A stretch of 64,000 bases of DNA from Okamejei kenojei (lineage: Eukaryota), in the NCBI GenBank assembly GCA_035221665.1, contig CM069132.1, positions 32,426,001-32,490,000 of the forward strand, read 5' to 3'. The notes beneath the pieces were generated by a model. That model was not told the origin of the DNA. It saw only the letters and a list, made by a program, of their open reading frames with translations, and did not search any database. This document shows positions 23,571-64,000 of the stretch, piece by piece. How positions within the stretch are numbered: position 1 is the stretch's first letter; each line of letters starts with the position of its first letter. Position numbers and translations under genes: made by a program.

Positions 23571-25321
23571 GCCTATCTCCTTCGCTCCTGAGATGCTGCT
23601 GCACCCGCTGAGTTTCTCCAGCCTTTTGTATACCCAAGATTGGCATGGTTGTTTATTGTAATGAAACAGTATAACGATGTTAACTTGGCAAAAAGATTTG
23701 ACTAGGATTCTGAAAGTAAACTACATTTTAGCCTCAAGTAAATGTGACAGCATCCAATTGCAAAAACCCCTCACTAGTTATTGTTATTATTGAAAGATTG
23801 CCTTCTGAGTGTCTTAAGTGTGACTATTGCAATTCCATTTAAAATACTTGAATTTTCAGAGGGATTATTTTCTGTGACTGGTACAATGCAGCATTTTTGC
23901 ACATAGCTATAACAAAAATAACTTTGTCTAGTAAATCATCATGTTTAATCTGCAGACCAGGTGACTTGCATATATGTTAAGATATTAAAAGCATGGCCGT
24001 GACCTGAATATTGAGGAGTCATTCATTTTCTGTTGATTGATATATTGCTGTTGCGGATGTTCTAGAATTGCTATCAGCTAGTTTCTTTGCAAAGGCTTTT
24101 AAATGAATACACCTTCATTTAAGCGAAGGTCACATTGGTAAGGCATTTCACTAATAAGACAGTCACTTAATATACTTCTGTGAGTAGCTTTGGCATTTCA
24201 GCAGCTTAGCGGAAACTGGAAGCTGCCTTGTCTCAGTGCTCAGTTCTGATGTCCTGTTATTTTGGAGCTCAAAGCTCCAGCTAATACCCTGTCTCATTCT
24301 CACACAGATGAACATATTTTCAGAAGAAGGAATCGCTGAGTGCTATTTGAAGGTATCATCAACTACATGATTAACACCTGATTAGAATCTACTGGCTATT
24401 TCTAAAGGTCTGCAAGCTCTCTTTAAATTAGCTAAAATCTGCAGCAAGTGAGACTGCAGGTGCTGAAGGGAATTTATTTTAAGGCCTTTGTGTAAGCCAG
24501 CATCTCCCAAGCGTACACGTTTTCCTTGGAGCACCTCGTGAAAATGTAACCTTTCATAATGACCTTTCTGTGCTTCCCAGGTCAGAAAGATCGTTCTGAG
24601 AATTAAAATGGTTAGCAACCAGGAGAGCAATGGTTAGCAACTAAGCCTTAGGACCAAGCAAAAGTGTTCGCAAAACGGTTGACGAGTTTACACTTGGTCT
24701 CACTGATGTACAGGAGACCACATTGGCTCGTTACTAGATAAGAGGATATAGGTTTAAGGTGAGAGGGAAAAAAATTAATAGAAGCACAAGGGACAACTTC
24801 TGCGTAGTGGTATTCAAAATGAAGAGAGGCCCACAAGAGAGGCCCACAGGAGCCGTTGGAAGAGGAGGAGGGGGAGGAGCGACACCCGACCGGTAAGCTA
24901 TAAAATCTAGCGCGGGGCTTGTTTTTTTCAGAGGCCCACAGGAGCCGTTGGAAGAGGAGGAGGGGGAGGAGCGACACCCGACCGGTAAGCTATAAAATCA
25001 AGCGCGGGGCTTGTTTTTACCCAAATCCATAACATTCCATTTGGAGAAGTGGTTTTTTTTGAGGAAACCGCTGATTGGTGGAAGAGGACCCGAGGAAGCA
25101 GCTGATTGGGTGCAACCCCGGGTTTACAATTTTACATTTCTGCCTTCTGGGAGTTAGGGATTCTGGGAGTTAGGGATTCTGGGAGTTAGGGATTCTGGGA
25201 GTTAGGGACTCTGGGAGTTAGGGATTCTGGGAGTTAAGGATTCAGTATTTAGTAGTAAAGTTTAAAGGATAAGTTTTTGTGTTTTTTTAATATTTAATAC
25301 AGAGTAATTTGGGAGTAAGGT

Positions 25322-26268
25322 ATGGCAGTAGAGATTGGCCCCGTGGTTTGTTCAGCCTGCAACATGTGGGAGATCAGGGAGATGGTCGGTGTCCCTGGTG
25401 ACTACGTTTGCAGGAAGTGTGTCCAGCTGCAGCTCCTGGCAGACCGCATTGAACGATTGGAACTGCGGCTGGATTCATACTGGAGCATCCACGATGCGGA
25501 GAAAGTCGTGGATAGCACGTACAGTGAGTTGGTCACACCGCAGGCAAAAGGTAAGAGGACAAAAAGGGAACGGGTGGCCAATAGCCAGCAAAGCAGTAGG
25601 CAGGTAGTGCAGGAGTCCCCTGCGGTCATCTCCCTCCTAAACAGGTATACCATTTTGGATACTGTTGAGGGAGATGGCTCATCAGGGGAATGCAGCAGCA
25701 GCCAGGTTCATGGCACCATGGGTGGCTCTGCAGCACATGAGGGGGGAAAAAAGAGGGGAAGGGCAATAGTAATAGGGGATTCAATTGTCAGGGGAATAGA
25801 TAGGCGTTTCTGCGGCCGCAAACGAGACTCCAGGATGGTATGTTGCCTCCCTGGTGCAAAGGTCAGGGATGTCACTGAACGGCTGCAGAACATTCTGGAG
25901 GGGGAGGGTGAACAGCCAGTTGTCGTGGTGCATGTTGGCACCAACGATATAGGTAAAAAAAGGATGAGGTCCTACAAGTGAATTTAGGGAGCTAGGAGAT
26001 AAACTTAAAAGTAGGACCTCAAAGGTAGTAATCTCCGGATTACTACCAGTACCACGGGCCAGTCAGAGTAGAAATAGGAGGATAATGCAAATGAATACGT
26101 GGCTTGAAAAGTGGTGCAAGGGGGAGGGATTCAAATTTTTAGGGCACTGGGACCAGTTCTGGGGGAGGTGGGACCGGTACAAACAGGACGGTTTTGCACC
26201 TGGAATGGAATGGAACCAATGTTCTTGGGGGAGTGTTTGCTAGTGCTGTCGGGGAGGATTTAAACTAA
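25322..26268 (+). pseudogene. CR1 ORF1: CxxC-CxxC zinc finger, leucine zipper, SGNH/GDSL esterase (frameshifted)
   Basis: CSAC...CRKC, VIGDSIVRG, HVGTND; frameshifts near 25960 and 26195; ends GEDLN*. Confidence 0.9.
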
Positions 26269-29251
26269 TGTGGCAGGGGGATGGGTACAAGAGCAGAGAG
26301 GCAGGTGGGTGTAAAATGAGGGTAGAAGCATTAGGTAGCAAGGTGAAAAGTAAAAGTGGCAGGCAGACAAAACCAGGGCAAAAATCAAAAAGGGCCACTT
26401 TTCAGCAAAATTGTATAAGGGGTAAGTGCGTTGTAAAGCCAAGCTTGAAGGCTTTGTGTCTCAATGCAAGGAGTATTCGTAATAAGGTGGACGAGTTGAA
26501 CGTGCAGATAGATATTAATGATTATGATATAGTTGGGATCACGGAGACATGGCTCCAGGGTGACGTAGGCTGGGAGCTGAACATCCAGGGATATTCAATA
26601 TTCAGGAGGGATAGAGAGAAAGGAAAAGGAGGTGGGGTAGCGTTGCTGGTTAGAGAGGAGATTAACGCAATGGAAAGGAAGGACATTAGCTTGGAGGATG
26701 TGGAATCGGTATGGGTAGAGCTACAAAACACTAAGGGGCAGAAAACGCTGGTGGGTGTTGTGTACAGGCCACCTAACAGTAGCAGAGAAGTTGGGGATGG
26801 TATCAAACAGGAAATTAGAAATGCGTGCGACAAAGGCAAAACAGTTATAATGGGTGACTTCAATCTACATATAGATTAGGTTAATCAAATTGGCAGGGGT
26901 GCTGAGGAAGAGGATTTTTTGGAATGTATGCGGGATAGTTATCTAAATCAACATGTAGAGGAACCAACGAGAGAGCAGGCTATTTTAGACTGGGTTTTGA
27001 GTAATGAGGAAGGGGTAGTTAGCCGTCTTGTTGTACGTGCCCCCTTGGGCAAGAGTGACCATAATATGGTTGAGTTCTTCATTAGGATGGAGAGTGACAT
27101 TGTTAATTCAGAAACAATGGTTCTGAACTTAAAGAAAGGTAACTTTGAGGGTATGAGACGTGAATTGGCCAAGATTGACTGGCAATTAATTCTAAAAGGG
27201 TTGACGGTGGATATACAATGGAAGACATTTAAAGACTGCATGGATGAACTACAAAAATTGTTCATCCCAGTTTGGCAAAAGAATAAATCGGGGAAGGTAG
27301 TGCATCCGTGGATAACAAGGGAAATCAGGGATAGTATCAAAGCAAAGGATGATGCGTACAAAGTAGCCAGAAAAAGCAGCATACCAGAGGACTGGGAGAA
27401 ATTCAGAGACCAGCAGAGGAGGACAAAGGGCTTAATTAGGAAAGGAAAAATAGATTATGAAAGAAAACTGGCAGGGAACATAAAAACTGACTGCAAAAGT
27501 TTTTATAGATATGTGAAGAGAAAGAGGTTAGTTAAAACAAATGTAGGTCCCTTGCAGTCAGAAACAGGTGAGTTGATCATGGGGAACAAGGATATGGCGG
27601 ACCAATTGAATAACTATGTAGTTATGTGGTTCCGTCTTCACTAAGGAAGACATAAATAATCTGCCGGAAATAGCAGGGGACTGTAGGTCAAAGGAGGAAT
27701 TGAGAGAAATCCAGGTCAGTCGGGAAGTGGTGTTGGGTAAATTGAATAGATTAAAGGCCGATAAATCCCCAGGGCCAGATAGGCTACATCCCAGAGTACT
27801 TAAGGAAGTAGCTCAGGAAATAGTGGATGCATTAGTGATAATCTTTCAAAACTCTTTAGATTCTGGAGTAGTTCCTGAGGATTGGCGGGTAGCAAATGTA
27901 ACCCCTCTTTTTAAGAAGGGAGGGAGAGAGAAAACGGGGAATTACAGACCAGTTAGTCTAACATCGGTAGTGGGGAAACTGCTAGAGTCAGTTATTAAAG
28001 ATGGGATAGCAGCACATTTGGAAAGTGGTGAAATCATTGGACAAAGTCAGCATGGATTTACGAAGGGTAAATCATGTCTGACGAATCTTGTGGAATCTTT
28101 CGAGGATGTAACTAGTAGCGTGGATAAGGAGAACCAGTGGATGTGGTATATCTGGACTTCCAGAAGGCTTTCGACAAGGTCCCACATAAGAGATTAGTAT
28201 ACAAACTTAAAGCATACGGTATTAGGGGTTCAGTATTGATGTGGATAGAGAACTGGCTGGCAAACAGGAAGCAAAGAGTAGGAGTAAACGGGTCCTTTTC
28301 ACAATGGCAGGCTGTGACTAGTGGGGTACCGCAGGGCTCAGTGCTGGGACCCCAGCTATTTACAATATATATTAATGATCTGGATGAGGGAATTGAAGGC
28401 AATATCTCCAAGTTTGCGGATGACACTAAGCTGGGGGGCAGTGTTCGCTGTGAGGAGGATGCTAGGAGACAGCAAGGTGACTTGGATAGGCTGGGTGAGT
28501 GGGCAAATGTTTGGCAGATGCAGTATAATGTGGATAAATGTGAGGTTATCCACTTTGGTGGCAAAAACAGGAAAGCAGACTATTATTTAAATGGTGGCCG
28601 ATTAGGAAAAGGGGAGATGCAGCGAGACCTGGGTGTCATGGTACACCAGTCATTGAAAGTAGGCATGCAGGTGCAGCAGGCAGTGAAAAAAGCGAATGGT
28701 ATGTTAGCTTTCATAGCAAAAGGATTTGAGTACAGGAGCAGGGAGGTTCTACTTCAGTTGTACAGGGTCTTGGTGAGACCACACCTGGAGTATTGCGTAC
28801 AGTTTTGGTCTCCAAATCTGAGGAAGGACATTATTGCCATAGAGGGAGTGCAGAGAAGGTTCACCAGACTGATTCCTGGGATGTCAGGACTGTCTTATGA
28901 AGAAAGACTGGATAGACTCGGTTTATACTCTCTGGAATTTAGGAGATTGAGAGGGGATCTTATAGAAACTTACAAAATTCTTAAGGGTTGGACAGGCTAG
29001 ATGCAGGAAGATTGTTCCCGATGTTGGGGAAGTCCAGGACGAGGGGTCACAGCTTAAGGATAAGGGGGAAATCCTTTAAGACCGAGATGAGAAAGACTTT
29101 TTTCACACAGAGAGTGGTGAGTCTCTGGAACTCTCTGCCACAGAGGGTAGTTGAGGCCAGTTCATTGGCTATATTTAAGAGTGAGTTGGATGTGGCCCTT
29201 GTGGCTAAGGGGATCAGAGGGTATGGAGAGAAGGCAGGTACGGGATACTGA
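26268..29251 (+). pseudogene. CR1 ORF2: APE endonuclease + reverse transcriptase with a few stops/frameshifts
   Basis: LNARSI, ITETW, GDFN, SDHN, KSPGPD, GVPQGSVLGP, FADDTK motifs across ORFs 26268-29251. Confidence 0.93.
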
Positions 29252-30423
29252 GTTGGATGATCAGCCATGATCATATTGAATGGCGGTGCAGGCTCGAAGG
29301 GCTGAATGGCCTACTCCTGCACCTAATTTCTATGTTTCTATGTTTCTATGAGCTGCCAGAGGGGGTAGTTGCAGCGGGCACCATAACAATATTTAAAAGT
29401 CACTTGGACATGCACATGAACAGGAAGGTTTAGAATGTTATGGACCAAAAGTAGGCAAATGGAACTAGTTTAGATGGGGCGATCAGGTGCTGTCTGGCCG
29501 GCTGAGTTACTCCAGCATTTTGTGTCTATCTCAGATGTAAACCAGCATCTGCAATTTCTTCCAACATTTTACTCCCATAGTGTCTAGTGCTGTCTAGTGC
29601 AAAAATATGATCGTATTCCATACAGAACTCAGGAATCTCACCGCAGAGAGTTGAATATTACAAATCCTTTACTGTACATGTTTGAAGTATTGGGTGATCA
29701 AGAGCTAATATGTGCCTGCAGGTGCAGGAATCTTGAGTGAAAAACAAAACCTAACAGTGAGTTACAAATGAATGTCATAGGCGAAGGAGAGTTTTGAATT
29801 AATAGAATTTTGAGACCTTTAAAAACAGCATTAAAAGCATATCAGTTGGTGGGACAGATGAAAATATGAAAATATTGAAGTATTATTTGTTCCCCAAGTA
29901 TTGTTAGACATATATAGAATGATTTTTCAATATATCCTGATGACAAAGAAGCCGAAAGTGTCTATGCCAATTCACAGAGCAATCTCTTTCTCCCACTTAT
30001 TTTATGTCCTGTAACCTTCCATTCCCTTCAACTCCTGATGCCATCCTGCATCAATTCTACCCCTCACTGAAATGCTTGGGCCCGTTTACTGTGCCAATTT
30101 AGTCTACAAACGTGCAGGGCTTTGCAAAGTGGGAGGAAACCCACATGGTCTATGTGACGTTTGTGCATTCAACCCGTGACCATGTGGGCATCAAAGGTTA
30201 GGTTTGAACTTGGGTTGCAGGAGCTGTGAGGCAGCGGCTCGTCTAGCTGCTGACTATAAATGATGCCACTCTGCCACTATCATATGCCACTGTGGTCTTT
30301 CCAAAAGTCACCCTTCTGTTCACAGGTCAGAAACTGACAGATGATCCAGGAGAATCTGAAACTAAAGCTGCAGCTTCTAAATTTCCTACTGCAGCTAAAG
30401 GTCCTGACACTTTAAAAGCATGA

Positions 30424-31345: not shown

Positions 31346-33823
31346 AGATTCTGATGATTGGGATTCTGCTATGCACATTGTATGTGTAGTTTCCCTCTGG
31401 TATTTTCTTCATGATTCACATACAAAGCCTATAATTAAAATAACTTTAAGCGACAGCTGAGCTAATATGCTGTGAAAGATCTTGAATATGATCATCAAAG
31501 TTTTATTAATCTCAATTTATATCAGTCAAAAGTCATGCACTCAAACAAATGAATCATTTCTTAGTGTAAAATATTGTATTTGCTCAAGGCTAAAATATTA
31601 AATCATTTTTTAATACTAATAGTGAAAAGTTGTTTCGAATAATGTAATTTTCACAAAATGTACATGCTTTTAACACTGACAACGTAATATAAATGGTTGG
31701 CAGATGAATAATCCAATAACAAAGAGACACAATTATCTTAAAAAGATGGGATTGTGGAGGTAGATTCATTACACTGGAAACGTCCTTGCAAAATAACACT
31801 TAAGGGTGACACAGTGGTGCAGCTGGTAGAACTGCTGCCTCACACTGCCAGAGACCTGGGTCTGATCTTAACCACAGCTACTGCCTGTGTGAGATTTGCA
31901 TGTTTTCTCTATGACTGCATGGGATTCCTCTGGGTGCTCTGGTTTCCTTCCACATCCCAAAGATGTGCGGGCGAGTTAATGCTTTAGCTCCAGAATCTTT
32001 CACCTGAGTAGGCTTTGAAATTCACTCATTGTTGCTCTGTAAGTAACGACAACAGTTGATCAGATGGGGAAAGAGGTCCCACAGGGGCAATTAAATGATA
32101 ACCCAGATAATTCCCTTTCATGTTGCTACTTGCAGGGAGTTTGCCAGGAGTCCTCTTCCATTATAATGTTTACAGACTTAAAAAGAAGGATTAAGAGGAT
32201 TGAGCAGAGTATATAGAGATAATGTCCTCTTTTATTACATTATATGAAAGTAAAGCGGATTGTGCGGTTACTTTGTACAACATCTCTTGTTGCAGGGATG
32301 ACCCTGAACTTCTAGGTGCTGTTTCTTTAAATCTCCCTCCCACTCACACTATGATCTCTCTGCATTTGACCTCCTGTATTCTTCAAATTCAGCTCAACAT
32401 AAGGCCAAGGAACAGCTTAGATAGGTGAATGCACAGTTTTTCCCAAGGTTGGGGAACTAGAAGGTATAAGTGTTGGGTGAAAGAGGAAATATTTAATAGG
32501 GATCTGAGGGGTATGTTTTCCCACAGAGAAGGTGCTACAAACAGCAAAAAAGAAGTGTTTGAAGCAGGTACAATAAAATAATTTAAAATACATTTGGACA
32601 GGCACATGGATAGGAAAGGTTTAGTGGGATATGGGCCAAATGCAGGTAAATAGGACTAGAGTATTTGGGCATATTGGTCTGCATGGACAAACTGGGTCAT
32701 TTCTGGTGGTGCATAACTCTGTAACAGCACCTATCCTTATGACTGGCACTGTGCAGATTGGAATGTAATTTTGAATGCAATAATATTAGTTGATCATTTG
32801 TTTAAGTCTTGCAATTTCAGCTTTCTTTATTTTATCTCTCTTCTAGTATTTCTTTCTTTCATCTTTTCCATTTACACTGTGTCCACTCATACCTTGATCA
32901 CCTTATTTCACCTTATTTCACCTGATTTTCTGATCATCCCAACAGACATCCTACCTTTTTCTTCCCTTTTTCTTCACCTTGTCCTTTCTGTCTTTAGTGC
33001 AGCTTAAAACCTGTTTCATTTATCTACTTTCCCAGTAGAGAATAAGGTGACTCAATTTGTATTTCAGATTTATGGCTGCTTTTGGGTTGCAGTTGATTTT
33101 GCCCATATGACTGTGGGGTATTTCCAAAGAGAAGTGAAAGTATGGCATTCACTGTGCTCCATTAGTGCACTTCCCTGGTCAGCAACTTATGGTGGCAGAT
33201 ACATTCACTTTTCCAGATTGTCATAGATAACTCCATAGGTGTGGACTTCATGCTCAAATATGTGATTCATCCTATGATATTTCCTATGAGCTTTCCAATA
33301 AAAGCACTGTAGCAACATTCATATTGATATCGGCTTGCATGATTAGATTTAGTAATATTATTTATATTCCACAAGCAGCAGTTAAGTAAAATACTCTCAG
33401 CAAAAATGGATCTGTTTCTTCCCAAGAAAGATTTGGTTGATTTGGCTTCTATTTTCTGAAGTTTAGAATAGTAAAAGGGGATTTCATGGCAAAAAAAACC
33501 TACAAAAAACTAACAAGACTGGGCAGACCAAATAATGAGAGTGACTTGTGTGCAAGAAGGAACAGTAGAAAGGGTCTTGACCCAAAACGTCATCCATTCC
33601 TTCTCTCCAGAGATGCTGCCTGTCTCGTTGAGTTACTCCAGCTTTTTGTGTCTATCTTCAAGGAGAATGTCTTGATGGTTGGGAAAGAAAGAAGGGTTAT
33701 TGTCTAAAAACTATGTAGGACTGAGATGAGGAGAAATGTCTTCATCCTGAAAGTGGTGAATCTAACTGTCATGTAAAGCATTTTTATGTCAAATAATTAA
33801 TTATATTCAAGAATTAATTATAT

Positions 33824-36120
33824 TGAGAATGAGGAGGTCATAGAGAGGAGCTACAGGGAGGTAGTCACTCCCAAACCACAGGAGGCAGACAAGTGGGTCA
33901 CAGTTAGGAAGGGCAAGGGGCAGAGGCAGGGGCTAGAGAGTACCCCTGTGACCGTACACCTGGAAAATAGGTACTCGGGTTTGTGTACGATTGGAGGGGA
34001 CAGCCTAGCTGGGGGCAGCAACAGCGGCCGGGCCTCCGGCACAGAGACCAGCCCTGATGCTCAGAAGGGTAACAAAAAAAGGAGGGCAATTGTAATAGGG
34101 GACTCTATAGTTAGGGGGTCGGATAGACGATTCTGTGGACGCAGTCGGGAGACCCGGATGGTAGTTTGCCTCCCTGGTGCCAGGGTCTCGCATGTGTCAG
34201 AACGTGTCCAAAAGATTCTGATAAGGGAGGGAAAGGAGCCTGATGTTGTGGTACACATAGGTACCAATGACATAGGCAGAAAAAGTGACGAGGTCCTGAA
34301 GGGAGAATTTAGGGAGTTGGGGGGAAAGTTAAGGAGAAGGACCAAAAGGGTAACAATTTCAGGATTACTGCCTGTGCCACGTGACAGTGATAGTAGGAAT
34401 GAAATGAGGTGGAGGATAAATGCGTGGCTGAGGGACTGGTGCAGTGGGCAGGGATTCAAGTTTCTTGATCACTGGGACCTCTTTTGGGGAAGGCATGATC
34501 TGTACACAAAGGACGGGTTGCACTTGAGCCCGAGGGGGACCAATATCCTGGCAGGGAGATTTGCAAAGGCTACTGGGGAGACTTTATACTAGAAAGGCTG
34601 GGGGGAGGGACTCGGGTAGAGGGGGCTAGGGGTCAGGGTGTGGGACAAGAGGCAGAGAAGGGAAGCACTCAGATCCAAAATGTAGGCGTGAAAGATGAAA
34701 AAGATAATAGACAGAGAATAAGGGATGGTGGGTTTCTAAAATGTGTATATTTTAATGCTAGGACCATTGTAAGTAAGGTGGATGAACTTAGAGCCTGGAT
34801 TGACACCTGGAAATATGATGTTGTGGCAATCAGTGAAACATGGTTGCAGGAGGGCTGTGATTGGAAACTAAATATTCCAGGATTTCGTTGCTTCAGGTGT
34901 GATAGAATTGGAGGGACCAGAGGGGGAGGTGTTGCATTGCTTGTCAGAGAAGATATTACAGCAGTGCTTTGGCAGGATAGATTAGAGGGCTCGTCTAGGG
35001 AGGCTATTTGGGTGGAACTGAGAAGTGGGAACGGTGTAGCAACACTTTTAGGGGTATATTGTAGACCGCCAAATGGGGAGCGTGAATTGGAAGAGCAAAT
35101 ATGTAAGGAGATAGCAGATATTAGTAGTAAGCACAAGGTAGTGATTGTGGGAGATTTCAATTTTCCAAAAATAGACTGGGAAGCACATTCTGTAAATGGG
35201 CTGGATGGTTTGGAGTTTGTAAAATGTGTGCAGGATAGTTTTTTGCAGCAGAACATCGAGGTATCGACCAGAGAAGGGGCAGTGCTGGACCTCCTGTTAG
35301 GAAATGAGGCCGGTCAGGTGACGGAGGTATGCGTTGGAGAGCACTTCGGGACCAGTGATCACAATACCATTAGTTTCAATATAATTATGGAGAGAGTCAG
35401 AACTGGACCTAGGGTGGAGATTTTTGATTGGAGAAAGGCTAACTTTGAGGGAATGCGTAAGGATTTTAAAGGAGTGAATTGGGACACTTTGTTTCATGGG
35501 AAGGATGTAGAAGAGAAATGGAGGACATTTAAAGGGGAAATTGTAAGAGTACAGAATCTTTATGTCCATGTTAGGTTGAAAGGAAATAGTAAAAATTGGA
35601 AAGAGCCATGGTTTTCAAGGGAAATTGGACACTTGTTTCGAAAAAAGAGAGATATCTACAATAATTATAGGAGGCATGGAGTAAATGAGGTGCTAGAGGA
35701 GTATAAAGAATGTAAAAAGAATCTTAAGAAAGAAATTAGGAAGGCTAAAAGAAGATATGAGGTTGCTTTGGCAAGAAAGGTGAAAGTAACCCCCAAGGGT
35801 TTCTACAGCTATATTAATATGAGAATGAGATGATAATTTGACATGAGAATTAAGGGACAGAGGTTTCGGGGTAACGTGAGGGGGAACTTCTTTACTCAGA
35901 GGGTGGTGGCTGTGTGGAATCGGCTTCCAGCAGAAGTGGTGGAGGCAGGATCGATTTTAACATTTAAGAGTAAAGTGGATAGGTATATGGACGTGAAGGG
36001 AATGGAGGGGTATGGTCTGAGTGCAGGTAGATGGGACTAGGGGAAAACAAATGGTCGGCACGGACTGGAAGGGCCGAGAGGGCCTGTTTCCGTGCTGTAA
36101 TTGTTATATGGTTATATGGT
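33824..36120 (+). mobile_element. Second CR1 family copy: ORF1 esterase, intact endonuclease, RT deleted, (TTATATGG)n tail
   Basis: ORFs 33948-34592 (GDSIVRG, HIGTND, DGLH) and 34640-35833; jumps to 3' end at ~35840. Confidence 0.9.
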
Positions 36121-37273
36121 TAAGAAGGAGTTAGATATAATTGGTTCAAGAAATATGGGAGTATGCAGGATATTGAATATGAATAAAAAGCCACAATCAC
36201 GTGCTGAAAGGCCAACTCATGATCTTATTTTCTATGCTCCTAATAATGCCATTCCTTCAGTTTTATATGTTCAATGTCCTTGAATTGCAAATACAACAAC
36301 ATTCCATAAATAGCTTCACCAAGTGGAATGTTATGATCAATGAAGGAGGTACACACATATTTTCTCTTGAGTGTTTAGAGATGGACAATAGAGTTAGCCT
36401 GATTTCTGTGGTGGGAAAGATGCTGGAGTCAATTATTAAAGAGGTATTAATGGGGCATTTGGATAGCAGTAGAATAATTAGGGGAAAATAAATCGTCGGC
36501 ACGGACTGGAAGGGCCGAGAGGGCCTGTTTCCGTGCTGTAATTGTTATATGGTTAATTAGTCCAAGTCAGCATGGATTTATGAAAGGAAAATCATGCTTG
36601 ACTAATCTTCTGGAATTTTTTGAGGATGTGACAAGTAAAATGGATGAAGGGGAGCCAGTGGATGTAGTGTATCTAGACTTCCAGAAAGCCTTTGATATGG
36701 TCCCGCATGGGAGATTAGTAACTAAAATTAAAGCGCATGGTATTGGGGTTAGGGTGTTGACATGGATAGAAAATTGGTTGGCAGACAGGAAGCAAAGAGT
36801 AGGAGTGAACGGGTCCTTTTCATAATGGCAGGCAGTGGCGAGTGGAGTGCCGCAAGGCTTGGTGTTGGGGCCGCAATTGTTTACCATATATATACAGTGG
36901 CTTGCAAAAGTTTTCATACCCTTTGAACTTTTCCACATTTTGTCACGTTACAACCATAAACGTAAATGCATTTTATTGGAATTTTATGTGATAGACCAAC
37001 ACAAAGTGGCGCATAATTGTGAAGTGGAAGGAAAATGATACATGGTTTTCAAATTTTTTTACAAATAAAAAACTGAAAAGTGTGGCGTGCAAAAGTATTC
37101 AGCCCCCTTTACACTGATACCCCTAAATAAAATCCAGTGCAACCAATTGCCTTCAGAAGTCACATAATTAGTAAATAGAGTCCACTTGTGTGTAATCTAA
37201 TCTCAGTATAAATACAGCTGTTCTGTGAAGACCTCAGAGGTTTGTTAGAGAACATTAGTGAACAAACAGCATT

Positions 37274-38298
37274 ATGAAGCCCAAGGAACACACCAGACAG
37301 GTCAGGGATAAAGTTGTGGAAAAGTTTAAAGCAGGGTTAGGTTATAAAAAAATATCCCAAGCTTTGAACATCTCACGGAGCACTGTTCAATCCATCACCA
37401 GAAAATGGAAAGAGTATGGCACAACTGCAAACCTACCAAGACATGGCCGTCCACCTAAACTGACAGGCCGGGCAAGGAGAGCATAGATCAGAGAAGCAGC
37501 CAAGAGGCCCATGGTAACTCTGGAGGAGCTGCAGAGATCCACAGCAAAGGTGGGAGAATCTGTCCACAGGTCAACTATTAGTTGTGTACTCCACAAATCG
37601 GGCCTTTATGGAAGAGTGGCAAGAAGAAAGCCATTGTTGAAACAAAGCCATAAGAAGTCCCGTTTGCAGTTTGCCACAAGTCATGTGGGGGACACAGCAA
37701 ACATGTGGAGGAAGGTGCTCTGGTCTGATGAGACCAAAATTGAAGTTTTTGGCCTAAATGCAAAACGGCATGTGTGGCGGAAAACTAACACTGCACATCA
37801 CCCTGAACACACCATCCCCACTGTGAAACATGGTGGTGGCAGCATCATGCTGTGGGGATGCTTTTCTTCAGCAGAGACAGGGAAGCTGGTCAGAGTTGAT
37901 GGGAAGATGGATGGAGCCAAATATAGGGCAATCTTGGAAGAAAACCTGTTAGAGTCTGCAAAAGACTTGAGACTGGGGCGGAGGTTCACCTTTCAGCAGG
38001 ACAACGACCCTAAACATACAGCCAGAGCTATAATGGTTTAGATCAAAGCATATTCTTGTGTTAGAATGGCCCAGTCAAAGTCCAGACCTAAATCCAATTG
38101 AGAATCTCTGGCAAGACTTGAAAATTGTTGTTCACAGACACTCTCCATCAGATTGGATGGAGATAGCTCGAGCTATTTTGCAAAGACGAATGGGCAAAAA
38201 TTTCAGTCTCTAGATGTGCAAAGCTGGTAGAGACGTACCCCAAAAGACTTGCAGCGGTAATTGCAGCGAAAGGTGGTTCTACAAAGTCAGGGGGGCTG
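37274..38298 (+). pseudogene. Tc1 DD34E transposase, disrupted
   Basis: MKPKEHTRQVRDKVVEK..GRPPKL, WSDETK, FQQDNDPKH, SPDLNPIENLW; stop at 37484-37486 and frameshift near 38035. Confidence 0.92.
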
Positions 38299-38527: not shown

Positions 38528-40649
38528 AAGGAAACCATGTATCATTTTCCTCCCACTTCACAATTATGCACCACTTTATGTTGGTCTATCACATAAAATC
38601 TCAATAAAATACATTTACGTTTGTGGTTGTAACGTGACAAAATGTGGAAAAATTCAAGGGGTATGAATACTTTTCAAGCCACTGTATTAATGATTTGGAA
38701 GAGGGAATTAGGAGCAACACTAGCACGTTTGTGGATGACACAAAGCTGGGTGGTAGTGTGAACTGTGAAGAGGATGTTAGGAGGTTGCAGGGTGACTTGG
38801 ACAGGTTGAGTGAGTGGGCAGATGTGTGGCAGATGCAGTATAATATAGATAAATGTGAGGTTATCCACTTTGGCGGCAAAAACAAGGGGGCAGATTATTA
38901 TCTCAATGGGGTTAGGTTAGGTAAAGGGGGGGGGATTCAACAAAGACCTGGGTGTCCTTGTACACCGGTCACTGAAAGTTGGCGTGCGGGTACAGCAGAT
39001 AGTGAAGAAAGCTAATGGAATGTTGTCCTTCATAACTAGAGGATTTCAGTATAGTAGTAAAGAGGTTCTTCTGCAGTTGTATAGGGCTCTGGTAAGACCC
39101 CATCTGGAGTATCGTGTGCAGTTTTGGTCTCCTAATTTGAGGAAGAACATCCTTGTGATTGAGGCAGTGCAGAATAGGTTCACGAGATTGATCCCTGGGA
39201 TGGAGAGACTGTCATATGAGGAAAGATTGAAAGGCCTAGGCTTGTATTCATTGGAATTTAGAAGGATGAGGGGGTATCTAATAGAAACATATAAAATTAT
39301 AAAAGGACTGGGCTAGCTGGATGCAGGAAAAATGTTTCCAAGGTTGGGCGAGTCCAGAACCAGGGACCACATTCATAGAATAAAGGGGAGGCCATTTAAG
39401 ACTGAGGTGAGAAAAAATGTTTTTCACCCAGAGAATTTGTGGAATTCCCTGCCACAGAGGGCAGTGGAGGCCAAATCACTGGATGGATTTAAGAGAGAGT
39501 TAGATAGAGCTCTAGGGGCTAGTGGAATCAAGGGATATGGGGAGAAGGCAGGCACGGGTTATTGATAGCGGACGATCAGCCATGATCACAATGAATGGCG
39601 GTGCTGGCTCGAAGGGCTGAATGGCCTCCTCCTGCACCTATTTTATATGTTTCTATGTAATAAAGGCAGCCTTGCATTCTGTTCTGAAATTAATCCTTTA
39701 TAAAGCAAGCTTGATTAAAAATAAATTCTTTAGGTCGCAGGCATCCCTGTATATTGCCCATCCCTAACTGCCCTTGAGAAAGTAGTAGTGGCCCCCAACT
39801 TGTGCCTTGCAACCGATGTTCATAAAATGATTCACTTGCTGCAAAATACCCACAGGCCTCTGAGCTGATCTGGTAGCTACAGTGCTTATATATTGATCCA
39901 GTTGAGTTTATGGTGAATGGTGACTCCCAGGATATTGATGGTGTGGGATTTGGGAAGGTTGTGAATCTATGGAATTCATTGCCACAGACAGCTGTGGAGG
40001 CCGTCACAGGTATTTGTAAAGCGGAGATTCATAATTTCTTGATTGGGAAAGGCATCAGAGGCTACGGGGAGAAGGCAGGAGAATAGAGTTGAGAGGGAAA
40101 ATAGGTCAGTCATGATTGAATGGCAGAGTACACACGATGGGCTGAATGGCCTAATTCTGCTCCTAGGTCTAATGGTCTTATTTACCAATGGTAATGCCAT
40201 TGAATGTCAGAGGTAGACGCTCTCTTGTTGTAGATCATCATCGCCTGACTCTTTTATAGCACCAATGCAGTTTTGATCTTGCCTACATGTATTTGTTGAG
40301 GAGTTATGAATGGAATTGAACAACAACAAGCATCTCCACTCTTAACTCAGTTTCCTGCTTCAATACATGCCCTGGTGTGGAGAAAAGTTCTAACGAGTTA
40401 TTTAACTGAGTGGTTAAAAATTGAATTTAATGATGTTTGCAAGTCTTCCTCCATTTGCATTCCCTGATGTCTGTGCCCTTTCAATTTGATCAGAGGCAAC
40501 TGCTTGGAGTCCCTGGATCACACAAGTGGATTTAAAGTTCAGATTTTAACCGAACATCAACATTGTTGTTCAATTGTACTTCTTTTGTACTTGTATTCAT
40601 CTAACAGCTAACTGTCCCTACCACTGCAGTGAAGACCACTGCACTGCAG

Positions 40650-41030
40650 TGGAGATTTGAATAGGAAGATAGGACAGATGCATGCATGGCTGACGAGTTT
40701 GTGTAGGGGGCAGCAATTTAGATTATTGGACCATCTGGATTTCTTCTAGGGCAGAGGCAACCCCTACATGACGGATAGGTTGTCACCTAAACTGAAGAGG
40801 GAACACGATCCTGGCAGGCAAGTTTGAAAGTGCTGCTAGGGAGGGTTTAAACCAGGATGGCAGCAGGAAGAGGATCCAGAGCAAGTGTGAGGCAGGTGGC
40901 AGGCTGAACATTGATATAGAAGTCAATGACAGCAAGTTCAGTAGACAGAACAGGTAGGAGCAGAGAAGGGAGGGAGGAAAGGTTGTTGGATTAAATTGCA
41001 ATTCTTTCAATGCTAGAGATCGGATGAATT
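40650..41030 (+). mobile_element. Old CR1 ORF1/ORF2 junction fragment
   Basis: FRLLDH..DRL.L..GNTILAGKFESAAREGLN resembles ORF1 C-termini at 26100-26268 and 34450-34592. Confidence 0.7.
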
Positions 41031-63264: not shown

Positions 63265-64000
63265 CACTTGGAGGCCCAGGAGCGGTTGGAGCGGCTGGTG
63301 CAGCGTCCGGGCGGTGGGTTTAAAAAACGAGCATGGGGCTTTGTTCTCACAGAGGCCCAGGAGCGGTTGGAGCGGCTAATGCAGCGTTTCCACTCTGCAA
63401 CGTTGCATCACACTTCAAAAGAAGTGATCTGGAGGAAGCCGCTGATTGGTGGAAGTGGACTAGAGGAAGCAGCTGATTGGGAGTAACCCCAGGTTTGTAT
63501 TTCTGGTTTCTGTTTGTACTTTTTAGTTAAGGGTTCAGTGAGTTAAGGGTACAGTGCGTTAAGGGTACAGTGCGTTAAGGGTACAGCGAGTTAAGGGTTC
63601 AGTGAGTTAAGGGTGCAGTGAGTTAAGGGTACAATGTTTTTTAGTAAAGCTACAGTTTAAAGGATTAAGATTTTTATAGTGGGAGTGAGTTGATTTAATT
63701 TGGGGGTAAGCCATGTCAGTTGAGATCGGCCCCGTGCTCATCCTGCAACATGTGGGAGATCAGGGATATTGTCGGTGTCCCTGGTGACTACGTGTGCAGG
63801 AAGTGTATCCAGCTGCAGCTCCTGGCAGACCGCATTGAGCGGTTGGAGCTGCGGTTGGATTCATACTGGAGCATCCACGATGCTGAGAAAGTCGTGAATA
63901 GCACGTACAGTGAGTTGGTCACACCACAGGTCAAAGTTAAGCGGCCAGAAAGGGAACGGGTGTCCACTAGCCATCATAGCAGTAGGCAGGTAGTGCAGGA
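63265..64000 (+). mobile_element. 5' end of another CR1 (5' UTR + ORF1 start at ~63713), runs off the window
   Basis: ORF1 start highly similar to 25322 onward; same 5' UTR architecture. Confidence 0.9.

Follow-up and report, generated by a model that had tools for sequence, protein, structure and literature searches.

The window analysed here is the whole stretch of 64,000 nucleotides from Okamejei kenojei (assembly GCA_035221665.1, contig CM069132.1, positions 32,426,001–32,490,000, forward strand). It is animal DNA, and at ~25060–29350 it carries a near full-length, decayed long interspersed nuclear element (LINE), called copy 1 below, with an esterase-type first open reading frame (ORF1) and an ORF2 that encodes an APE endonuclease (EN) and a reverse transcriptase (RT). 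This is the architecture of the CR1 clade, which is prominent among the LINEs of birds, reptiles and cartilaginous fishes; we infer the CR1 label from it and from the separation from the ZfL2-1 group described below, not from named RT references. Among named relatives, those closest to ORF1 are skate and ray proteins, one of them from Leucoraja erinacea at 79%, and in snake and swallow members of this family, ORF1 ends in RALN. The SGNH Pfam match was found on the homologous ORF1 of copy 2, a second element in the window, and a profile of ORF1 relatives matched the ZfL2-1 esterase (PDB 4C1B, E 1.4e-40). The first-pass annotation had proposed that ORF2 is reached by a −1 programmed ribosomal frameshift at the ORF1/ORF2 junction. 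Comparison with relatives supports this reading, through the conservation of a slippery heptamer, the switching of its class together with a silent base, and the mostly absent ATG; at the level of the family, we consider it very probable that esterase-ORF1 CR1 LINEs express ORF2 in this way.

The claim concerns the family and not copy 1, which is unable to make ORF1 or ORF2 protein. Relative to copy 2, its ORF1 has lost 1 nt near 25961 and again near 25977 and has gained 1 nt at 26192–26195, and its ORF2 is broken by a stop at 26877–26879 and by frame changes near 27622–27644 and 28128–28197. The ORF1 indels are copy-specific, being absent from contigs of three other sequencing runs; for the copy 1 family, run X15 is probably DNA and X21 contributed only 4 raw reads. 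The features are collected in Table 1.

Table 1. Features of the ORF1/ORF2 junction, of copy 1 and of related junctions in the window.
Feature	Position	Strand	Remarks
Slippery heptamer U UUA AAC	26259..26265	+	In phase with last two ORF1 codons; conserved or class-switched in relatives
ORF1 stop TAA overlapping ORF2-frame ATG (TAATG)	26266..26270	+	C at −3, T at +4
G5 run, copy 1	26276..26280	+	Starts 11 nt after heptamer (10-nt spacer); candidate stimulator
5′ untranslated region (UTR), copy 1	25061..25321	+	Short tandem repeats 25146–25243; 78% match to second 5′ end at 63432–64000
ORF1, copy 1	25322..26268	+	Cys-rich N-terminus, SGNH esterase; broken near 25961, 25977, 26192–26195
ORF2, copy 1	26259..29251	+	APE endonuclease PF03372, RT PF00078; −1 frame
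3′ tail, copy 1	29327..29350	+	(TTTCTATG)x3, read from sequence
Junction, CR1 copy 2	34583..34605	+	T TTA TAC (one mismatch), TAG, no ATG, G6 at +11
Junction, third older copy	40846..40852	+	T TTA AAC kept, CAG replaces stop, no G-run

At 26257–26273, copy 1 reads GAT TTA AAC TAA TGT GG. The ATG occupies 26268–26270, its A being common to the stop and the ATG, and its context is one that we take to be a poor Kozak match. A slip by one base gives TTT AAA CTA ATG TGG, a frame that stays open for 206 codons through the EN motif LNARS, with the EN Asn at codon 68. The heptamer T TTA AAC, the overlapping stop and ATG, and the open −1 frame are thus all present as first described. Because the indels have put the last ORF1 codons out of frame with the ORF1 ATG (25322), the phase of the heptamer in copy 1 is fixed by homology to relatives whose ORF1 ends in GEDLN.

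Could such a heptamer be there by chance? Counting both strands, the window has 24 instances of TTTAAAC, and X XXY YYZ is found 10 times in any phase within the 3,979-nt element; since chance matches are this common, a heptamer in a single copy proves little. Among 40 of the 53 variant rows for the copy 1 family, none lies at 26252–26285, which is weak evidence, as ~2.5 rows would be expected there at mean density and the 40 leave 13 rows uncovered. The question was therefore one for the relatives, which came from three surveys.

In the protein survey, an ORF1 profile built from LN-ending proteins was run against 1.84 billion representatives, and 102 of the 150 listed ORF1 proteins had a tail of 20–45 residues after the DGLH motif. 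Separately, a shark-like ORF1, P0017, was met under the name of a Pseudomonas aeruginosa SGNH hydrolase, probably through contamination. The first DNA survey used host-derived contigs in three prokaryote assemblies, where animal-type LINE DNA stands within prokaryote genome records (L001–L014 in G001, L007 in G002 and L008 in G003). G001 measures 17.8 Mb and holds 28 ORF1 matches, which points to host contamination; in its family, 1 of 179 genomes matched, namely G001 itself. Scans of viral contigs found no relatives. The second DNA survey used a junction-blind pattern in mid-ORF1 and returned 64 metagenome loci, 31 of them without an esterase score. The other 33 comprised 18 with a readable junction (8 CR1-like and 10 L2-like), 12 cut or rearranged before the junction and 3 decayed (L086, L095 and L099); L039 and L048, which have another ORF1 architecture, and the bacterial esterases L015–L017 were left out of the counts. 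The statistics below concern twelve junctions, that is, the 8 CR1-like loci, L001, L008 and window copies 1 and 2, and they ignore kinship (L001/L008 and L091/L108 are pairs).

The results show that the heptamer is conserved in phase in all 8 of the CR1-like loci gathered without regard to the junction, in three classes: TTTAAAC (L050, L101 and L110), GGGAAAC (L083, L089 and L106) and AAAAAAC (L091 and L108). These are among the four heptamers named as most shifty on mammalian ribosomes (Atkins 2016, PMC5009743; here and below, a PubMed Central number stands for the excerpted text of that source). Over the twelve junctions, 11 carry a canonical heptamer and the twelfth has one mismatch, compared with 2 in-phase heptamers at 1,419 upstream ORF1 codons of the relatives. 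The EN lies in the −1 frame in all 6 CR1-like loci whose contigs reach it, and the EN Asn does so in 10/10 junctions of the wider set that extend to it. The stop follows the heptamer directly in 9/12, and in L091, L101 and L108 the heptamer precedes it by 9–12 codons; the −1 frame of L091 and L108 is open from just 3 codons ahead of the heptamer. Two families in the prokaryote-assembly contigs, ~33–38% identical to the skate-like ORF1, carry T TTA AAC TAG, and their −1 frame passes through FKLVSQGG or FKLVGQGG and contains no Met on its way to the EN. Among the G001 copies, TTTAAAC is kept in 17/18 and TAG in 18/18. Heptamer mismatches there number 1/126 versus 75/1,620 upstream; we rejected this as a sign of selection because the copies are related and decay neutrally.

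Furthermore, the heptamer changes class together with a base that is silent in ORF1. The third base of the codon before the heptamer equals X in 11/11 junctions, with Ala encoded as GCT, GCG or GCA and Ser as TCT, TCG or TCA, each matching the heptamer class. Given the amino acids, the probability of the slippery codon choice is 0.02–0.21 per junction, and the product over 11 junctions is 10^-13.3, a figure overstated by kinship. The same rule can be read in proteins, since X XXY YYZ at the DNA level requires a codon ending in T before TTA and in G before GGA. Among the 102 tails, 58 end in LN, 10 in GN and 34 otherwise, some with an internal KN or a terminal FF. Residues whose codons end only in pyrimidines outnumber those with purine-only endings by 21 to 1 before LN (45 non-identical tails) and are outnumbered by 0 to 9 before GN (10 tails); Fisher's test of LN versus GN tails gives p 5e-7, with neighbouring positions at 49 to 50, for a profile built from LN-ending proteins and kin that are not independent. 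Some ORF1 proteins end in FFR or FFH, which would fit a U-rich heptamer class. Synonymous variation breaking the heptamer, which had been named as evidence that would speak against slippage, is not what we found; conservation is at the nucleotide level, in three canonical classes, and the silent base covaries. From the sequences, the pattern is that expected from selection for slipperiness rather than on Leu-Asn.

The start codon behaves differently. When the heptamer and the ATG are compared across relatives, the heptamer is canonical in 11/12 junctions, and 7 of the 10 that reach the EN are without a usable ATG, having none in the −1 frame upstream of the heptamer or between it and the EN Asn. 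An intact G001 element, L124, illustrates this: its ORF1 is open for 365 codons and its ORF2, counted from the heptamer, for 962, with a single CTG and not one ATG ahead of the EN Asn. The three junctions with an ATG are those of copy 1, L101 and L106, and UAAUG occurs in 1/12, at copy 1. The UAAUG overlap is real in copy 1 and not common to its relatives, and no downstream structure was found with it at copy 1; as far as these sequences indicate, a UAAUG stop-start would be local to the copy 1 family and not a general CR1 route. The sequence, phase and frame of the junctions, their conservation and covariation, and the absence of the ATG are direct observations.

How would ORF2 then be made? 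In the model that we favor, most ribosomes would end at the ORF1 stop and release ORF1 protein (ORF1p), whereas some would shift back by one base on X XXY YYZ, at the last two codons or close to them, and yield an ORF1–linker–EN–RT fusion. This route would set a low enzyme-to-ORF1p ratio, as in gag-pol expression. Slippage, the fusion protein and the ratio in which it is made are what we infer from the junctions. In the copy 1 family, the ATG may permit reinitiation as a second route beside frameshifting, a possibility that we regard as plausible, if less likely than not.

The ATG invites the explanation known from SART1, in which translation ends at UAA and starts again at the AUG that overlaps it, giving a separate ORF2 protein, the heptamer being incidental. 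That mechanism has been demonstrated for SART1 (PMC3708506), and UAAUG is present in copy 1 with no variant listed for the family. However, SART1 requires a downstream structure (PMC3708506), the motif and a usable ATG fail in most of the relatives as counted above, and the class switching of the heptamer would go unexplained, which makes this account very unlikely. Just as unlikely, in our estimate, is reinitiation after the ORF1 stop that is independent of any AUG, as proposed for mammalian LINEs (PMC5009743), with the heptamer unused for slipping. It would account for the missing ATGs and sits well with our failure to find an RNA stimulator, but it gives no reason to expect a fixed −1 frame, or three canonical slippery classes that covary with a silent base. 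Nor does it suit L091, L101 and L108, whose heptamers lie well before the stop and, in L091 and L108, shortly after the −1 frame opens.

Could selection instead act only on a C-terminal Leu-Asn of ORF1p, with the heptamer as a by-product of codon choice? LN is the commonest tail ending among the three groups counted above, and L and N are invariant in alignment A2 of the ORF1 relatives. On the other hand, the codon choice is always the slippery one, GN and KN substitute for LN, and the preceding residue obeys the third-base rule. The ZfL2-1 esterase ends in RLLRTI, and LN is thus not needed for the esterase fold. L086, a decayed and L2-like locus, ends in C CTG AAC TAG. We regard the Leu-Asn explanation as already largely refuted and hardly credible. 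Least credible of all is that the TAG after the heptamer serves as a splice acceptor, or that the site is a DNA-level slippage hotspot giving in-frame copies. Single in-frame fused proteins do exist (P0047 and P0065), but each has one member, none of the joints listed in contigs falls at the junction, no pyrimidine tract lies upstream, and the stop of copy 1 is TAA.

Several observations weigh against frameshifting. The heptamer of copy 2, a copy whose close ORF1 relatives end in GETLN, carries one mismatch, and in copy 3 the EN motif lies in the ORF1 frame, probably through decay. In L101 and L106, ATGs do occur in the −1 frame ahead of the heptamer and a Met stands shortly before the EN Asn, and the copy 1 family keeps its ATG through the variant-free stretch. 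A missing ATG proves nothing by itself, because mammalian LINE ORF2 is thought to initiate without dependence on its AUG (PMC5009743). On the protein side, 34 of the 102 tails have neither LN nor GN at the end, and the 9 QGN tails may be one clade. L123 (G001:C886), of another esterase-ORF1 family, has a −1 overlap and no canonical heptamer in its decayed copy, and a weak search among longer proteins found no in-frame fused family.

The absence of a detected stimulatory structure also belongs on this side. With ViennaRNA, which models no pseudoknots, no stable structure was found 3′ of the heptamer in 10 junctions (z −0.93 to +1.10), a region that has few C to pair. The copy 1 folds gave z −0.37 and +1.76 with no hairpin, and the only z below −1 was −1.43, for one copy 2 fold. 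The coronavirus-type likeness claimed for the site thus extends to the heptamer and not to a 3′ pseudoknot or hairpin. The best long-range partner for the G-run of copy 1 scored −21.8 kcal/mol (shuffles: mean −18.5, sd 1.8, best −22.2), partners in four other loci scored at best about as their shuffles did, and a long-range partner was rejected. In L101 (905–945), an 8-bp stem begins 9 nt past the heptamer and takes the place of the G-run (z −0.63, not significant), and in L108 (525–565) AAAAAAC is followed by C-rich sequence that resembles a poly(C)-binding site.

What recurs downstream is the G-run. A G5–6 starts at +11 in 6/12 junctions (both window copies, L001, L008, L050 and L110), L089 and L106 have one at +12 and +13, and L083, L091, L101 and L108 have none at +11 to +13. 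The per-junction shuffle P is 0.0004–0.05. The run covers two silent −1-frame positions, and the amino acids there vary; a Gly-rich linker together with strand G bias could explain part of it. Synthetic quadruplexes stimulate −1 shifts (PMC3919603), and natural use of G-quadruplexes in frameshifting was described as not known (PMC5009743); as a general stimulator we rejected the G-quadruplex, which was predicted for window copies 1 and 2 only (2/10 folded). If frameshifting does occur, it is a serious possibility, though short of an even chance, that a protein binds the G-run at the 10-nt spacer, and rather unlikely that the adjacent stop codon and the heptamer alone suffice. A G-quadruplex appears improbable, and some other stimulator equally so. 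The stimulator is the weakest step of the frameshift model.

Related elements appear to join the two ORFs by another route. In the ten L2-like loci (L056, L062, L063, L064, L076, L079, L082, L092, L103 and L105; ~8 families, with the pairs L063/L105 and L064/L076), the ORF1 stop is TGA with C as the next base, and ORF2 carries on in frame behind it, 10/10, with no Met before the EN in 6/9. L103 matches the ORF1p of ZfL2-1 (E 1e-67), which is an L2 element (PMC4176376). In an EN tree of the 18 rows with enough EN, including the window copies, L001 and L008, the heptamer and UGA-C groups are divided with 100/100 support. Of the L2-like loci, only L103 has UGA-CUA, which, like UGA-CGG, is a type II readthrough context (PMC13517186); the others have CAA, CCA, CAT or CGT after UGA. 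Stop codon readthrough probably joins ORF1 and ORF2 in this group. A stem, GCAGAG...CTCTG(C/T), lies ~22 nt downstream of the TGA in six of the loci, and only those of L056 and L063 clearly beat shuffles.

Elsewhere in the window, copy 2 (33822–36120) belongs to another subfamily, 71% identical to copy 1 over the 3′ half of ORF1, and has no Met before the EN. Its ORF1 start is gone, and mid-ORF2 is joined straight to the 3′ end near 35820–35850, an internal deletion of the RT. A Tc1/mariner transposase (PF01498) at 36895–38041 starts where a CR1 RT fragment breaks; because the RT match stops at ~36894 and resumes at 38659, the Tc1/mariner element was probably inserted into that fragment. The 5′ end of another copy of the copy 1 family (78%), with differing 5′ UTR tandem repeats, is cut by the window end at 63432–64000. 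Just upstream of copy 1, 24838–24926 and 24930–25018 form an 89-nt direct duplication (99%). The 8-nt unit of the 3′ tail of copy 1 is of a kind that we take to be typical of CR1.

If the frameshift model is right, the CR1 enzyme is made as an esterase fusion, and ORF2 annotations beginning with the first internal Met lose the first EN strand. Frameshifting that does without an RNA structure and has a G-run at constant spacing would represent a novel type of cellular stimulation. More tentatively still, CR1 might carry a cellular protein-stimulated −1 frameshift, in which the G-run 10 nt behind the site would be bound by a host G-tract protein, or by ORF1p itself, and would thereby determine the enzyme ratio. 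Esterase-ORF1 LINEs would then make a gag-pol-like fusion interchangeably by a −1 slip (CR1) or UGA-C readthrough (ZfL2-1-like L2), with the fusion and not the route being selected. The junction cassette is short, which makes the frameshift question directly testable.

The translation of ORF2 from two-ORF LINE mRNA has been described as unclear (PMC3708506). Our literature search found no report of CR1 frameshifting; Haas 1997, Kajikawa 1997/2012, Kapitonov and Jurka 2003, supplements and Repbase notes were outside its scope, and a prior suggestion is possible. In term searches, "frameshift" does not occur in PMC3905857, PMC4120745 or PMC4316615, and it is used for decay alone in the excerpt of PMC4255032 and for ALV alone in that of PMC11835228. 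The excerpted text of PMC4176376 says nothing on how ORF2 starts, and about two thirds of the text of the 2016 frameshifting review (PMC5009743) contain no mention of CR1.

Among known systems, the proposed CR1 mode would operate as gag-pol frameshifting does, yet the 3′ structure that marks the canonical structure-stimulated class was not found. It shares with retroviral and coronaviral −1 programmed ribosomal frameshifting (PRF; PMC5009743) the X XXY YYZ in phase and the downstream ORF in the −1 frame, and differs in its non-LTR (long terminal repeat) host, in having no 3′ pseudoknot or hairpin that we could find, and in the stop directly after the heptamer in most junctions. In the −2/−1 PRF of PRRSV, for which nsp1-beta and PCBP are the stimulators (PMC4937337), there is likewise no obvious downstream structure and a short motif stands at a 10-nt spacer; there, the motif is the protein-bound, C-rich CCCANCUCC, whereas CR1 has G5–6 as a candidate, lacking in 4/12 junctions. 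SART1 (PMC3708506) shares the UAAUG overlap with the copy 1 family, an overlap that is not conserved across CR1 families. Penelope-like elements (PMC8557442) are, like CR1, non-viral retroelements with a predicted ORF1-to-RT frameshift, but they carry GIY-YIG and not APE, and a pseudoknot is drawn there, of which none was found in CR1. TRE5-A and TRE3-A of the social amoeba Dictyostelium are non-LTR elements for which a review (PMC5911963) states that ORF2 needs a −1 frameshift; their likeness to CR1 comes from that statement. In Paramecium LINEs, a ciliate clade, recoding between ORF1 and ORF2 is predicted (PMC5405496), by a +1 frameshift or reinitiation in groups 1 and 2, whereas group 3 runs in frame across the ORF1 stop, just as the L2-like loci do.

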